A DNA stretch of 64,000 nt from an uncultured Verrucomicrobiae bacterium (GTDB lineage Bacteria > Verrucomicrobiota > Verrucomicrobiia > Limisphaerales > Palsa-1400). Location: the NCBI GenBank assembly GCA_963764165.1, contig CAVXRD010000002.1:864001-928000 (forward strand), written 5' to 3'. Within the stretch, counting starts at the first letter, position 1. Every line of letters begins with the position of its first letter. Shown here piece after piece: positions 4,344 to 41,068 of the stretch. Below the pieces are notes generated by a model, which was not told where the DNA came from, made no database searches, and saw only the letters and a list, made by a program, of their open reading frames with translations. A program made the translations under genes and the position numbers.

Positions 4344-4648
4344 TTGAAGCTCCTTTCCTTCCGGTTCAGGATTTCAACATCCGAGTTGGACCAAATCCGC
4401 ACCAAGGCTGGTGGTCGTTCGAATCGGACGGGCCTGTCAAAACGAGTCTTGAACTGGCGCGCTGGCTGTCTCATTAGGAGCACCGCCGCGCATTCGTTCA
4501 CCCTAATCACCCGGCAGAGCCGCTTGTCTAAACGGACGACATCGCCGACACGGAGTCGGAATTGATACTGCTTAGGCCGCCAAACCAGTCCGACTAATTC
4601 AGGCTGGTTTGGGTCGCGCCAATTGCGTTTCTTGAGTTTCGGTTTCAT
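4340..4648 (-). CDS. Hypothetical protein of the element operon
   Basis: ORF between radC and ardC, stop overlaps the ardC start; ATG at 4648 chosen. Confidence 0.6.
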   Translation of the reverse strand: MKPKLKKRNWRDPNQPELVGLVWRPKQYQFRLRVGDVVRLDKRLCRVIRVNECAAVLLMRQPARQFKTRFDRPVRFERPPALVRIWSNSDVEILNRKERSFK

Positions 4649-35890: not shown

Positions 35891-36118
35891 ATGATTAAGA
35901 CCATTTCCAAAGTTGGAAACTCAAACGGCATCATATTCGACGCGGCGATCATGGACTTGGCGCGACTTCAGACTGGCGATCAGGTCAACCTGGAGATCCA
36001 TGAAGGCGGCACCATCACGCTGACCCCGATCCGTCCACACCCTTCGCGCGAAAAGATTACCAAGACGATCAAATCCACGGTCAAGAATTACGCCCGCACC
36101 CTGAAACGGCTGGCGTGA
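35891..36118 (+). CDS. AbrB/MazE-fold antitoxin
   Basis: MIKTISKVGNSNGII; upstream TTGACT-17-TAGTAT; coupled to a doc-like start. Confidence 0.85.
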   Translation: MIKTISKVGNSNGIIFDAAIMDLARLQTGDQVNLEIHEGGTITLTPIRPHPSREKITKTIKSTVKNYARTLKRLA

Positions 36119-36189
36119 GTGTCACCCCAAATCATTGTATTCACCTCACGGTGGAGATTGTCCGCGAGATGCACGCGGTGGTCATCGAA
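36115..36189 (+). pseudogene. doc: N-terminal remnant of a Doc/Fic toxin
   Basis: GTGA overlap; HLTVEIVREMHAVVIE resembles the Doc N-terminus, then similarity is lost. Confidence 0.6.
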
Positions 36190-36292
36190 TGTTTTCATGT
36201 CGCACAATATAACTTGGACGACGTGCCAGTTGAAAAAGGCTCAATTCGGTGACGGTTTTGGCACAAACTACGTCGCACAATAATTCGACATC
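36190..36292. mobile_element. Possible transposon end (TGT terminus with repeated binding sites)
   Basis: TGT at the doc breakpoint; GTCGCACAATA repeated at 36199 and 36272. Confidence 0.4.
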
Positions 36293-36451
36293 ACGTTCGG
36301 CCATCGCGCAGAGATAGACAAAGCCCATTTGCATCTCGGAGCGTCAGCGTCTTTGGAACTATGAAAATGGTCCCCTTGACAGCCCGACCATGTGTGTGTT
36401 GTTGTCACGCTTTGCTTGCTTTTCGGTGAAGCGCGGTGGTATTATAATCCT

Positions 36452-36545
36452 GCACTTGTGAGAGCATTAGTTCTCCAGCGGTCGACTCAAAACCGCAGAC
36501 GAGTGCTTGACAAAGGCCACCGGAAATCCCGGTGGTTTTTGCTTT
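36452..36545 (+). ncRNA. Candidate three-way-junction small RNA convergent with the putative nuclease gene
   Basis: TTGCTT-18-(TG)TATTAT promoter; closing stem GCACTTGT/ACGAGTGC; inner hairpins GAGAGC/GTTCTC and GCGGT/ACCGC; terminator GGCCACCGG/CCGGTGGTT plus T-run. Confidence 0.6.
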
Positions 36546-37023
36546 AGTCCAGTGCCGGTGTCCCGCTGTGGATAAGCCGCTTTCCATACTCGTTCTGCGT
36601 CCAAAACGGAATGATGCTCCAGAATATTCTCATGCCGCCCGGCAATTGTTTGACAATGACTTTGAATCGTCGACCTTCCAGAACGGCGATGAACTCGTAA
36701 TAGGTGACTGAAACCAGCAGCTTTTCCCATTTGCCGTGCCTCTGTCGCCGCTGCCATTCGTTGACTTCCTCGATGCCCTGCACGGTCCGCGATAGCCGGA
36801 GAATTGCTGGCGCATTGGCAATCTGTTTAAGACGCATAAACTGGTCTGGCCTGTGACGCCCTCGATTCCAAGTCTGATGGCGAATATGCTCGAATCCTTG
36901 AGCGTTGAATTTGACCGGGCCGGAAAAGTAAGGGCAATGCACGGTGTCGATACTCTCGTAGAAATCGTGTGCTTTTTGAAGGACGGCGGAAAATTCCGAT
37001 TCGGTAAATTCAAGGCCAGCCAT
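36544..37023 (-). CDS. Hypothetical protein, putative BECR/RelE-like ribonuclease
   Basis: VKFNAQGFEHI..RLK..YYEFIAV..FKVIVK..FWSIIP pattern; fold is inferred. Confidence 0.6.
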   Translation of the reverse strand: MAGLEFTESEFSAVLQKAHDFYESIDTVHCPYFSGPVKFNAQGFEHIRHQTWNRGRHRPDQFMRLKQIANAPAILRLSRTVQGIEEVNEWQRRQRHGKWEKLLVSVTYYEFIAVLEGRRFKVIVKQLPGGMRIFWSIIPFWTQNEYGKRLIHSGTPALD

Positions 37024-37336
37024 TTTAGAATTGAATGATGGCTATCGGCGATTTCGACTCTGCATCAAGCAAGCGGCGATTCTTTGAGCGAACAGCGATC
37101 CTCGTTTGAATAACCACGTCACCACTGTTTTCGGCTGCCTGAGATCGAAGCCATTCAAGGAGGGTCTGAATTGTAAGCGGTTGCACTTCCATGATGTTTC
37201 ATTCTACCGCATTTTGTCGCTGTCGCGCAACTTGACGCCTTCGGCTTGGCCGCTATTTCGCGACGTTCCCGAGTTATCCCCACACCTTAAAAGGAAATCT
37301 CTTATTCTTTATCTGTATATTCTTATATAGAGAGAG

Positions 37337-37402
37337 GTAAACCTACTTACCTTAAGATGTCGGCAGGTTTACGTCTTGAAGTAAACCTATTTACATCTGG
37401 AT
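37337..37402. repeat. Three 22-bp iteron-like repeats beside an AT-rich tract
   Basis: GTAAACCTACTTACCTTAAGAT / GTCGGCAGGTTTACGTCTTGAA / GTAAACCTATTTACATCTGGAT. Confidence 0.6.
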
Positions 37403-37757
37403 GCTCCCAACCTCCGTTTTGACCGTTAACCTGGAAATGAATTGTATAAAGGTTGGTCTTGCCCTGGCCGCGACGGTTAATGGTTACAAGGCCAAAGCGC
37501 ACCAATTCCCCAATCAACTGCGTGACACGAACCCGTGTCACGCCCATATCGTCGGCGAGCCGTTCTTGCCCCGGAAAGCATGAGTCGTTGTGCCATGCGT
37601 AGCTCAAAAACATCGCGTAAGCAACCTTCGCGCCGATTGACAACTTTGGATCTCTTAAAATGAAATTCGGAACCTGGGTAAATCCGCCTCGCAACACCGG
37701 ATTGTCTGTGTCCAGTTGCAGGTTCTTCTCCTTGATGATTTCACCTATGGTTTTCAT
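37347..37757 (-). CDS. Winged-HTH replication-initiator-like protein
   Basis: GFTQVPNFIL..LSIGAKVAYAMFLSYAW..CFPGQERLADDMG..RRGQGKTNLY. Confidence 0.8.
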   Translation of the reverse strand: MKTIGEIIKEKNLQLDTDNPVLRGGFTQVPNFILRDPKLSIGAKVAYAMFLSYAWHNDSCFPGQERLADDMGVTRVRVTQLIGELVRFGLVTINRRGQGKTNLYTIHFQVNGQNGGWEHPDVNRFTSRRKPADILR

Positions 37758-37839
37758 TTGTGGTATGATTGTCCCATAAGTCCGCGTGCGCTCCAAATGT
37801 GGATAACCCGGACTTCCCCACCTTCATAAAAAAATCTTT

Positions 37840-38529
37840 ATGGATCATAACAATGAAAATCAATCCGGCACGGTGCTGCCAGATAACGCAGAGTTCGGAA
37901 ACGTGCAGAACAATTCCGAATCGTTCGGAAAGATTCCGCACGTTGCGGAAAGGTTCGGAAGAATTCCGAACGATGCCGAAAGGTTCCGAAGCGTTCCGAG
38001 GGCTTCCGCAAGGAACGAAAATCACACGCTTACAGTCCGCGACTCGGCTCGGATGTTCGAGGCCGCAGGGGTCGCTCGGACGGAACGGAGCATTGTTAAT
38101 TGGTGCCAGCCTAACAAATCAGGTATCGCCAGATTGGACGCGTATTTCGATCCAAATGAACGTCGGTATTTTATTACGTCCCAAAGTGTGGAATCCGCAA
38201 TCGCGGAAGAATTGGCCAAAGCGGCTAAGGGCGGCGAGCCTTCCGAACCTGACGGCATGCTTCGGAAAGGTTCGGAAAAGCCGCAAACCGATAGCGAGTC
38301 GCATAGCGACAGCGACCGGAGCAGGGAATTGGAAAAGGAGAACCTGGATTTGAAGATCACCAACCGGGGCAAGGATTTTTTCATCGAGCAACTTCAGAAA
38401 GAACGGGAATCCTTTGCCCGGGAGCGCGAGAATTATGTCGAAAAATTGATGTCCTTCAACCGGCAAGTTGGTGAACTCGAGGCCAAGTTACATCAATTAG
38501 ACTCTCCAAAATCAAGCCCTTCCTCTTGA
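37840..38529 (+). CDS. HTH-like plus coiled-coil protein, divergent from the rep-like gene
   Basis: LTVRDSARMF..RTERSIVNWC; C-terminal heptad coiled coil. Confidence 0.7.
   Translation: MDHNNENQSGTVLPDNAEFGNVQNNSESFGKIPHVAERFGRIPNDAERFRSVPRASARNENHTLTVRDSARMFEAAGVARTERSIVNWCQPNKSGIARLDAYFDPNERRYFITSQSVESAIAEELAKAAKGGEPSEPDGMLRKGSEKPQTDSESHSDSDRSRELEKENLDLKITNRGKDFFIEQLQKERESFARERENYVEKLMSFNRQVGELEAKLHQLDSPKSSPSS
37891..38010. repeat. Twelve tandem 10-bp degenerate repeats (nnnTTCSGAA)
   Basis: GAGTTCGGAA ACGTGCAGAA CAATTCCGAA TCGTTCGGAA AGATTCCGCA and so on. Confidence 0.85.
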
Positions 38530-38759: not shown

Positions 38760-39524
38760 GTGATGAACAGAGGCAATAAAGCGAGTTTGGATCAGGGAGC
38801 AGATTTGCTCGACGCCGTTGCAGCGGATGGCGGCGATGGGCGCGAGTCCCTTTCTGGTTTGGAGATAGCCCGATCTGAAAGCGCGGTGGCCGCTGGATTT
38901 AAATTCGGCACAAACGGTCCTCATTCGAGCCGGACGATGATGATCAATGACCTGTGCGTATTGCTGGAACGGACTCCTCCGGAAGCCTCGCTCGCTGATT
39001 TTCGGCGAATTATCGTGGACGAAAATCTGCTGAACAAAAAAACCGATTCCACTCGACGCGAAACTTTGCGGCGACTGCGGGAGCTTTACGCGCTTGACGG
39101 GGATACACCGGTGTTCCGCGTCCTCCGAAATTACTGGTCGCACGACCCCGTTGGACGCCCTCTGTTAGCTCTACTCGTCGCGCTTGCCCGTGACCCGTTG
39201 TTGCGAATTTCTTCGTCGGTCATTTTGAATGCGCGGCTTGGAAGTGAAGTGCCTGTCAGCTTATTTGACGAGGCCCTCTCGCGTGCCATGCCAGGCCATT
39301 TCCGTCCCAAGATACAGGCCGCGACGGCGCGGCACATCGCCTCCTCTTGGGAACAGTCTGGTCATCTCGCAGGGAGATTGCGCAAGACACGCGCTGTTGT
39401 GTCTCCGACGCCGTGGACTGTTGCTTTGGCGGTGTTTCTCGCATATCTTGCGGGTGGGCGAGGCGAATACACCCGGTCTGTTTCCAAAAAGCTGAAGGTT
39501 CTGTCGTTATCCTCAAGTTTTTGA
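38760..39524 (+). pseudogene. brxA: BrxA-like BREX protein, truncated near 39467
   Basis: GFKFG..SSRTMM..ENLLNKKT..LRELYALD..ARDPLLR..SSWEQSGHL; similarity ends at GGRGE; no other brx genes present. Confidence 0.65.
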
Positions 39525-39917
39525 GCGGCTTCCGATTCCCGGATTCCTGGCAAAAATCGTTTCTTCTTGAGGTGTTTCCCAAGGGGTGTAGGCCCTTTTC
39601 GGTGTCCATATAGGCGCAACGTCCTTTCGAGAGACGAATACGATGCAGTCGCAAAAAAGGCAATATCGCGCACGCAGGACAGCGAAATACGAGGTTTGTC
39701 ACCGAATGGAGTCTCAGGAAATGGATTCCGAGGAAAACGGGCATCTTATTCTCACTCCGCACGTTGTGAGAATCGCTTTAACCTGCTGCAAATGCAGGGC
39801 TTTCCGAGGCGACTTCAAAAATCTCGCTGCTGTTATTCTCACTTTTATTCTCATTATGTGAGTTTTGGGAGTGCGTTAATTTCATAAGCGCTTGAACATC
39901 AACGCACTAATTGTGAA

Positions 39918-39947
39918 TGGAGCGGGTGAAGGGAATCGAACCCTCGT
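39918..39947 (-). other. 3' fragment of tRNA-Gly (att-site duplication), not a full tRNA
   Basis: ACGAGGGTTCGATTCCCTTCACCCGCTCCA = T-arm, acceptor 3' strand and CCA; 5' half absent. Confidence 0.85.
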
Positions 39948-40063
39948 CTCGATGACTCGCATTGAGTGCATAAAAATTCGCCGCGCTGGCGCAAATGAAT
40001 GCGCTGATCGATCGCACCGGCATCGGTGCTTGAAAATCCGCCGGCGTATGGGAAGATAGCCGC

Positions 40064-40300
40064 ATGAACTCGGACGACCTGCGATTAATTGACAGCCGTT
40101 TTTGATCCCGCGCCAGAGAGCAGCTACACCTGCCACTTCGAGAATTGCCAGAGATTTTTTCCGAAGGCGAAACCGTGGAGCAGGCCAAGGCAAACCTTTT
40201 GGATGCGCAGACGCAAGTGATGGAGTATCACCGGGATGAAGCGCGGAAGAACCCCGTACACGGCTCGATGCGCGAAGAATTCGAACTTGCGGCTTCGTGA
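40064..40300 (+). pseudogene. hicB: HicB-like antitoxin with two frameshifts
   Basis: LTAVFDPAPESSYTCHFE/ELPEIFSEGETVEQAKANLLDA reconstructed across frames. Confidence 0.7.
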
Positions 40301-40365
40301 AACGGCTGGATTTGGAACGCCACCTTCGCGCTCATGGCTGTCTTCTTGTCCGCGAGGGCGGGCAA
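40297..40365 (+). pseudogene. hicA: HicA-like toxin N-terminal remnant
   Basis: GTGA overlap; VKRLDLERHLRAHGCLLVREGG, then degenerates. Confidence 0.65.
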
Positions 40366-40430
40366 CCGACGAAAAGCGCAGAACGAAATATGGATTGCCG
40401 GTCACTTCTGACAGCCTTATATTGCGGAGC

Positions 40431-40652
40431 GTGACTACGTTAGCCAAAATCCAAGCCGCCACAGAAATCTTGCCTCTGAAACAGCAAAAGGAATTGTATC
40501 GTTTCCTGGGCGCACGTCTGCGCCCGGCGCATCGGCGGATTCGGAAAGCGCGCCTCATTCGGAAGGGCGGTGACACGCTTCTCGCGGCCCCGTCCGGCGC
40601 GCCGCCCATGACCGCGGAAAACGTGAAGCGGATGTTGGAAGACTGGCCCTAA
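40431..40652 (+). CDS. Putative antitoxin
   Basis: 73-aa ORF from GTG, ending 2 nt before the PIN toxin. Confidence 0.65.
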   Translation: MTTLAKIQAATEILPLKQQKELYRFLGARLRPAHRRIRKARLIRKGGDTLLAAPSGAPPMTAENVKRMLEDWP

Positions 40653-40654
40653 GC

Positions 40655-41068
40655 GTGAAGTGGCTTCTGGATGTAAATTTCATCTTGGCATCGCGATGGA
40701 CAACTCATCCCAACCATCGGGCGGCGACGGCTTGGATTAATTCGATAAACGGGTTTTGCACGTGCGCGATTAGTGAGTTGGGATTCGTCCGAATCAGTTT
40801 AAGCAGCGCCTATGGGGCTACGTGGGGCGACGCCCAAGAAAGCCTGAAAAGACTGCACGCGCGTAACGGCCATCAATTCCTTGCGGATGATGTAAAGGGC
40901 ACTGACGCCCCGGAGACTGGTTCAAAGGATACAACCGATGCACATCTCGTAACGCTGGCGAAGCGGCACGGATTGAAGCTGGCAACTTTGGATACTGCCT
41001 TGGCCAGCAAACCATGGGCCGCAGATGTGGCAGAGAATCCATTGGCCCGTTCAGCGCAATCTCCCTGA
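40655..41068 (+). CDS. vapC: PIN-domain VapC toxin
   Basis: LLDVN, SELGFVRI, TTDAHLVTLA, LATLD. Confidence 0.9.
   Translation: MKWLLDVNFILASRWTTHPNHRAATAWINSINGFCTCAISELGFVRISLSSAYGATWGDAQESLKRLHARNGHQFLADDVKGTDAPETGSKDTTDAHLVTLAKRHGLKLATLDTALASKPWAADVAENPLARSAQSP

Follow-up and report, generated by a model that had tools for sequence, protein, structure and literature searches.

What might a compact RNA, encoded opposite a predicted nuclease gene and pointing at its stop codon, do to the enzyme that this gene encodes? The question is raised by a stretch of 64,000 nucleotides (hereafter the window; positions 864,001 to 928,000 of contig CAVXRD010000002.1, assembly GCA_963764165.1) from an uncultured Verrucomicrobiae bacterium, in which a minus-strand gene converges with a small three-way-junction RNA on the plus strand (Table 1). 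Across homologous loci the layout of this unit holds, as do the fold of the RNA, which is conserved and covaries, the strand on which the RNA lies, and the all but obligate association of the RNA with the gene; the unit represents a real, apparently undescribed family of structured RNAs tied to a predicted RNase of the BECR/LPD3-like type in two bacterial groups. As for its role, we consider it probable that the junction RNA is a protein-binding RNA antitoxin of the convergent predicted BECR RNase.

No description of the junction RNA or of the gene-RNA pairing was found in the literature searched, which was mostly open-access, with supplementary motif tables outside it. Look-ups of terms in the accessible parts of bioRxiv 10.64898/2026.09.22.753630, bioRxiv 10.64898/2026.08.28.747851, PMC11980606 and PMC8770471 likewise returned nothing relevant.

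Table 1. Features of the gene-RNA unit and its surroundings, in window coordinates
Feature	Position	Strand	Basis or remark
Predicted sigma-70-type promoter of the small RNA, TTGCTT-18-TATTAT	36416..36445	+	Sequence, homolog loci
Three-way-junction RNA core, ~55 nt	36452..36506	+	Fold, covariation, L3 ending in AA
Predicted intrinsic terminator, hairpin and T tract, possibly bidirectional	36511..36543	+	Adjoins the gene's stop codon; fold z -5.2
Gene for a 159-aa protein, basic (pI 9.7) and made up of a standalone LPD3-related domain; predicted ribonuclease of the colicin-D-like BECR type	36544..37023	-	His46 and Ser136
55-aa open reading frame (ORF), ending 1 nt before the gene's ATG	37025..37192	-	Slot filled in part of the Verrucomicrobia-type loci only
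Candidate mRNA promoter, a promoter-like TTGCGC-18-TAGAAT lying 8 nt upstream of the 55-aa ORF	37201..37230	-	By eye
HTH_36 gene (37347-37796, -) with the 229-aa gene (37840-38529, +), a backbone that the carrier mobile element also has	37347..38529		Pfam

The junction RNA and its pairing with the gene

In the window, the -35 box of the predicted small-RNA promoter (TTGCTT, 36416-36421) is followed by an 18-nt spacer with a TG at 36437-38 and by the -10 box (TATTAT, 36440-45), which is overlapped by a second -10-like hexamer, TATAAT, at 36443-48. Six nucleotides past this extended -10 box begins P1, the stem that closes the junction (GCACTTGT at 36452-59 with ACGAGTGC at 36499-506) around two hairpins, P2 (GAGAGC at 36460-65 with GTTCTC at 36470-75) and P3 (GCGGT at 36478-82 with ACCGC at 36492-96). 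The terminator stem (36517-23 with 36529-35) and a T tract from 36536 follow, and next to these lies the stop codon of the minus-strand ORF (36544-46). The original prediction had proposed the promoter, the three stems and the terminator abutting the stop codon, and direct reading of the sequence finds each of them in place.

Folding of the plus strand yields the same structure at -44.3 kcal/mol (z -6.3), with none of 200 shuffled sequences as stable, and the core alone folds with a z of -2.6 on the plus strand versus +0.1 on the minus strand. The RNA in the window scores 58.6 bits with R1, a covariance model trained on 83 homolog loci plus the window, a match that holds by construction. At the gathering score, Rfam returns only rRNAs for the window and no family for the junction RNA; the best local Rfam match of the element, SpF25 at an E of 0.91, is due to the terminator, and ARAGORN finds no tRNA within the window. 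Both gene and RNA are single-copy in the genome, save for one weak, stop-ridden match to the protein (E 0.004). A second conserved stretch, TTGACA with a GTGTG/TGTAAC-like sequence (36376-36410, +), lies about 60 nt upstream of the -10 box of the RNA and is present in most Verrucomicrobia-type loci, where it is possibly a tandem upstream promoter; a similar spacing is seen ahead of the gene itself in L085, L089, L093 and L094.

The pairing of gene and RNA was followed through the best 80 of 88 homologs from genomes and the best 80 of 293 from metagenomes, whose proteins are 36-72% identical to that of the window; ten loci were excluded for a flank of at most 61 nt or a gene running off the contig end. 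The loci come from Verrucomicrobia and mostly from Patescibacteria; isolated records carry the labels Rhizomicrobium, Nitrospira, Gammaproteobacteria and Woesearchaeota. The covariance model places the junction RNA immediately beyond the stop codon in all 77 genome loci and in 71 of 73 metagenome loci, i.e., in 148 of the 150 with enough flank, and on the opposite strand in all 148. The model also matched 65 of the 67 loci outside the set from which it was built, and, some loci being duplicated, 146 parsed hits correspond to 121 distinct cores. The two misses are a full-length gene with foreign DNA in place of the RNA (L094) and a gene with a changed 3' end (L136).

Every gene-linked locus carries one copy of the RNA. 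RNAs without a nearby gene were met in L014 (as a second copy), L205 and L206, and RNAs next to broken genes in L029, L034 and L202; this asymmetric decay, in which the RNA outlives the gene, is as expected for an antidote, in what is a small sample. The sole tandem pair is that of the gene-less L205, where two different subtypes of the junction RNA stand side by side (1437-1550). On the Rhizomicrobium-labelled contig L014, RNA and terminator are duplicated (1090-1179 and 4410-4499, 93% identical), and the second copy is directed at another small gene; on the tree, the protein of this locus nests among Patescibacteria sequences, which points to transfer or to a binning error.

Covariation downstream of the homologs, which the original prediction had proposed as a check, was found. 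Across 84 distinct sequences, 98.0% of the cells are paired versus 89.4% in shuffles, and two-sided changes number 187 versus 67; none of 500 shuffles reaches either value, and slid controls of the alignment are 33-50% paired. Mapped onto the protein tree, substitutions number 11-12 on either side at three P1 positions and 3-4 at two P3 positions, so that the compensatory changes are recurrent. The named pairs comprise 178 G-U versus 8 A-C cells, an excess that fixes the strand of the RNA and agrees with the earlier assignment of the wobble pairs to the plus strand. Pair counts from a further alignment, fitted to the model and containing weak and opposite-strand hits, were left aside. The structure of the RNA is under selection; a structure at the DNA level is disfavoured by the fixed distance to the promoter and by the G-U bias.

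The 8-bp closing stem first described stands in the window; across the family, the conserved P1 has 7-8 bp and ends at a G-C pair, the inner U-A pair of the window being clade-specific. An extra conserved pair spans the junction (alignment columns 28-55; U-G, U-A or C-G in 82 of 84), and eleven columns are invariant across phyla, among them the unpaired G10 and one loop adenine. L3 ends in AA in 144 of 145 loci and varies in length from 5 to 14 nt, and P2 is often capped by UUCG, CUUG or GNRA-type sequences, which are stable loops. As to a pseudoknot, the top covarying pairs are all nested and the top 16 include no complementary loop-loop pair, by a method that is blind to invariant tertiary contacts. 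Between Verrucomicrobia and Patescibacteria, identity falls from 60% in the core to 52% in the terminator and 44% in the upstream DNA (43, 37 and 39% when shuffled). In 119 of 132 distinct homolog loci, 5-7 nt separate the end of the -10 box from P1, and 99 of the 132 have the TG extension; all 132 possess a T tract and 103 an A-run on the 5' side of the hairpin, the last two being uncontrolled counts. Locus L126 was left out of the promoter and terminator counts, the tree mapping, and the loop-pairing and antiterminator tests discussed below.

Farther out, the layout persists while the sequence diverges. A wider profile finds homologs in 30 of 401 evenly drawn Patescibacteria genomes, the centre genome being included by construction. 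When the best opposite-strand promoter is picked automatically and the 72 nt from its predicted start are folded, a two-armed junction appears at that start in 25 of 29 evaluable Patescibacteria loci, at about 25% protein identity; the same pipeline gives 135 of 148 focal loci versus 25 of 800 other gene ends in those loci. Among the individual cases, the junction is visible by eye in L191, L196 and L202, the fold in L200 is no better than shuffles, L186 is a 3'-truncated gene without the RNA, and L201 is a homologous domain within a 1783-aa protein at a contig end. R1 finds 14 of the 27 distant homolog loci supplied (E<0.001), all opposite the gene. The most distant loci, L196, L199 and L200, combine a convergent promoter with a junction of the same topology and unrelated sequence, which suggests further RNA families for LPD3-like genes. 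In several distant loci the T tract directly follows P1, without a separate terminator hairpin.

Nearer to the source, a sample of 401 Verrucomicrobiota genomes holds a homolog only in the source genome. A search of 151 same-class genomes with the RNA model returned its own match and a weak partial one (L172), with no homolog beside it, in a scan of low sensitivity that scored 37 candidates per genome. No protein homolog was found in the viral contigs, plasmid records or phage records searched, and RNA patterns gave 0 and 1 match in viral contigs, the single match lying at a contig end that offers no gene for a check. A look through sequencing runs listed no carrier of the RNA, which counts neither for nor against its presence there.

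The convergent gene and its predicted nuclease

The resemblance to BECR/RelE-like RNases claimed at the outset is supported by fold matches at weak Z and by kinship to LPD3; the BECR core itself is an early helix that leads into an antiparallel beta-sheet. In a comparison with 48,161 chains, the top 11 matches (Z at most 5.0, thus weak) are all nucleases or toxins of contact-dependent inhibition, toxin-antitoxin (TA) or colicin systems, namely two CdiA-CT, a Salmonella TA complex, BrnT, RegB, YxiD, MqsR, a sequence-specific RNase, two RelE and colicin D. The 50 fold matches listed include neither ToxN/MazF nor HEPN proteins, an absence that does not count against them. Foldseek against the PDB returns nothing for the protein at E<=0.001, and the window protein has no match in Pfam or PADLOC. 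For an alignment of 87 members, PHROGs and PDB sequences give no match, and PADLOC and NCBIfam sporadic weak ones only. Neither the window protein nor any of 77 homologs has a Pfam match to the ToxN/CptN/TenpN families or to Abi_2.

LPD3 (PF18798) is matched by 29 of the 77 homologs at E<=0.05, one of them above the gathering score of 27 bits, and the window protein does not match it; the protein is related to LPD3, below formal membership. Among viral proteins, the three best fold matches all carry the annotation of large polyvalent proteins, and two of these are labelled LPD3. His46 is kept in 153 of 154 sequences (87 of 87 in the smaller alignment) and Ser/Thr136 in 153 of 154, and a His in an early helix combined with a Ser/Thr on the last strand is the active-site pattern of colicin-like BECR RNases (PMC5512222). 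The protein shares with the LPD3/PBECR/colicin-like enzymes both these residues and, through its homologs, the LPD3 matches (PMC5512222, bioRxiv 10.64898/2026.08.28.747851), whereas it differs from the LPD3 of phage polyvalent proteins in being encoded by a standalone cellular gene. No RNA partner of LPD3/PBECR is mentioned in the accessible parts of these two sources. The absence of an obvious protein antitoxin, another element of the original prediction, extends to the homolog loci, whose neighbours include no universal protein partner and no conserved protein antitoxin.

What the RNA may do, and how it compares with known systems

If the RNA is an antitoxin, its own promoter, on the strand opposite the gene, would drive a small RNA of about 90 nt that begins at P1 and ends at the terminator, and this RNA would bind and inhibit the predicted BECR-fold RNase. 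The latter would be an active enzyme with a His46/Ser136 site, probably targeting tRNA like the colicin-D-like enzymes. Recognition would be by the junction (the invariant G8, G10, A11, C25, U26, C31, G33, C50, G52 and C57 and the L3 adenines) and not by the variable loops; once RNA synthesis is lost, whether through loss of the element or through phage shut-off, the RNase would be freed, with addiction or abortive infection as the outcome. We favour this reading because a predicted RNase without a protein inhibitor almost never lacks the RNA, because the junction rather than the loops is invariant, and because the RNA outlives the gene. The invariant bases of junction and loop would speak for recognition by a protein, since cis-antisense pairing would need no sequence conservation.

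Against the predicted transcription signals, the -35 box of the small-RNA promoter matches the consensus at 3 of 6 positions, and a generic scan of the window for promoters and terminators lists neither the promoter nor the terminator of the RNA. The data on coupling and conservation would fit equally well an RNA that acts as cofactor, sensor or dedicated substrate in a functional ribonucleoprotein, e.g., as a phage sensor or activator, and the DUF3800, drum and skipping-rope RNAs, likewise protein-linked and terminator-ended, are of unknown role (PMC5737381). We nevertheless hold such a role to be rather unlikely, as more cases show the RNA surviving the gene than the gene surviving the RNA (in a small sample), the RNase-type residues are kept with no conserved protein inhibitor, and the relatives of the protein are domains of phage polyvalent proteins. 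As to a second rival, gene and RNA are convergent in every locus, overlap with the 3' untranslated region (UTR) is possible, and the separate terminator hairpin is missing in some loci, all of which would suit a cis-antisense, type I-like RNA that base-pairs to the convergent mRNA within its 3' UTR or disturbs the transcription of that mRNA, so that less enzyme is made; enzyme toxins under type I control do exist, as in RalR/RalA (PMC4041452). This explanation we judge unlikely, given that the junction bases are invariant across phyla and the loops vary, that P2 often carries the caps described above, that orphan RNAs persist, and that the A-run, by its uncontrolled count, suggests an mRNA end before the junction; the same count hints at two-way termination at the shared hairpin. 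The loops, moreover, show no preference for their own start region over other start regions as a pairing partner (mean rank 0.43-0.49 where chance is 0.5, n=116), and on this result antisense pairing of loops to the ribosome site was rejected. The original rejection of antisense control is sustained as far as pairing with the start region and overlap with the coding sequence are concerned, neither of which is seen, but less so for the 3' UTR, where possible overlap leaves cis-antisense action weakened only.

Two other explanations fare worse. A promoter, a compact fold and a terminator in series, directed into the gene, could form an attenuator or riboswitch whose read-through yields antisense RNA, an idea that we find very unlikely in view of the lack of a competing antiterminator: forbidding the terminator costs a median of 17.6 kcal/mol (minimum 10.7) in 122 of 122 transcripts, and a termination switch was rejected on that ground. 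The 55-aa ORF, which the original account of the locus left out, could make the unit an ordinary type II system with this ORF as the antitoxin and the RNA as incidental, and a coupled small ORF of 50-95 aa ending at the gene's start codon is indeed present in the window and in 36 of 150 loci, all with at least 55% protein identity, with one subfamily conserved at the protein level. Such an ORF was not found in the other 114 loci, including all those below 55%, the slot is filled by at least two unrelated types, and the RNA is near-universal where the ORF is patchy; of all the explanations, this one strikes us as the most improbable.

The antitoxin reading can be taken further, to a new class in which the three-way junction, transcribed separately from a single copy and left unprocessed, would mimic the shape of a tRNA and decoy a colicin-D-like tRNase. 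The unit would have spread through Patescibacteria and reached Verrucomicrobia by way of conjugative-type elements, and junction RNAs of unrelated sequence would serve the distant enzymes. We offer this extension tentatively and with some doubt. A likeness to tRNA is seen in the acceptor-like stem of 7-8 bp from the 5' end and in the two short arms; a conserved CCA was not found, ACCA following P1 in 5 of 145 loci only.

Several known systems resemble the unit in part. In txpA/RatA, a convergent type I system, toxin gene and small RNA meet at their 3' ends as they do here; the present gene, in contrast, encodes an enzyme fold of about 160 aa, has no overlap of the RNA with its coding sequence, and faces an invariant junction. 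Type I toxins are mostly small hydrophobic peptides (PMC2887945). In type III TA systems the antitoxin RNA lies upstream in the toxin operon, with a terminator in between, consists of tandem repeats that are processed to monomers, and has a pseudoknotted fold (PMC5086642). Like these (ToxIN, CptIN and TenpIN), the unit joins an endoribonuclease, here a predicted one, to a small folded RNA whose structure and sequence are both constrained, and it is found on mobile elements and near defence genes (PMC5086642). Unlike them, its RNA lies downstream and opposite the gene in all 148 gene-linked hits, has a predicted promoter of its own, is single-copy with no tandem array, forms a nested junction with no sign of a pseudoknot among the top covarying pairs, and faces a protein that is BECR/LPD3-like and not ToxN-like. 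The type III-like label originally attached to the locus is thus retained as an analogy: most likely the unit would work like a type III system while failing its defining features of co-transcription, repeats and toxin fold.

With AbiF/RCd22 the unit would have in common that a stem-loop RNA binds an RNase-type toxin directly and thereby neutralises it, in trans in the case of RCd22, which is, however, a co-transcribed 5' leader with two abiF motifs and a HEPN-like toxin, whereas the RNA here is 3' and convergent and the enzyme a predicted BECR (bioRxiv 10.1101/2025.04.15.648962). The nearest orphan analogy is that of the DUF3800-I, drum and skipping-rope motifs, conserved RNAs with an intrinsic terminator that accompany one protein family, also on the opposite strand (PMC5737381). 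They differ from the present RNA, which has no Rfam match, and in their protein; the orientation here is fixed, convergent and at the stop codon.

Genomic setting and significance

Upstream of the gene, the 55-aa ORF has no match in Pfam or NCBIfam. The small ORFs in this slot (37025-37192, -, in the window; 4820-4996 in L002; and others) include one type with an MEVQP-like start and one that is Arg-rich, and they end in [IT]x[FY]-stop a few bases from the ATG, possibly as leader peptides for translational coupling.

In Verrucomicrobia-type loci the unit is carried on a conjugative-type mobile element. Of about 59 such loci, 27 have the HTH_36 gene, 27 the 229-aa gene and 30 a coupling-protein cluster; all seven members of this cluster tested match TrwB, and one locus adds Replic_Relax and an integrase. 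In Patescibacteria the unit stands alone among varied genes, with restriction-modification genes or PemK adjoining in a few loci. The 229-aa protein belongs to no known family and has N-terminal 'SERFG/AERFR'-like repeats and a C-terminal, Pfam-weak, coiled-coil-like region.

At the left edge of the element in the window, the motif GTCGCACAATA occurs twice, about 70 nt apart (36198-36300), and could mark recombinase or regulator sites. Near it lies a gene for an AbrB/MazE-type antitoxin resembling a Doc partner (35891-36237, +; TIGR02609, E 3e-7), overlapped by a short GTG-start frame with no family match that may be a cut-off toxin gene. On the other side are a lone BrxA-like gene (38760-39524, +; PADLOC E 1.5e-68) and the 44-nt 3' end of a tRNA-Gly(CCC) (39906-39949), which matches a full gene on contig C1. 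The element looks decayed, and the BrxA-like gene and tRNA end look like remnants of a defence-carrying integrated element. Just past the tRNA remnant, a PIN-domain gene with an upstream partner ORF (40236-41068, +) looks like an ordinary VapBC-type pair.

In the source passages available, few protein families are named as held in check by a bound RNA, i.e., ToxN, CptN, TenpN, AbiF and AvcD, none of them of the BECR fold, and in type III TA systems and AbiF the antitoxin RNA is co-transcribed upstream (PMC5086642, bioRxiv 10.1101/2025.04.15.648962). No such RNA-controlled system was found for Patescibacteria in the literature searched. RNA-controlled RNases are thought to be the stock behind programmable systems such as Cas13 (PMC12373285). 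At about 620 bp, the unit is small enough for direct work in E. coli, and the natural pairs at 25-70% protein identity suit swaps of specificity. If the antitoxin reading is true, a BECR RNase controlled by a convergent, independently promoted junction RNA would represent both a new fold and a new architecture among such systems, and it would provide the first function for LPD3-like domains.
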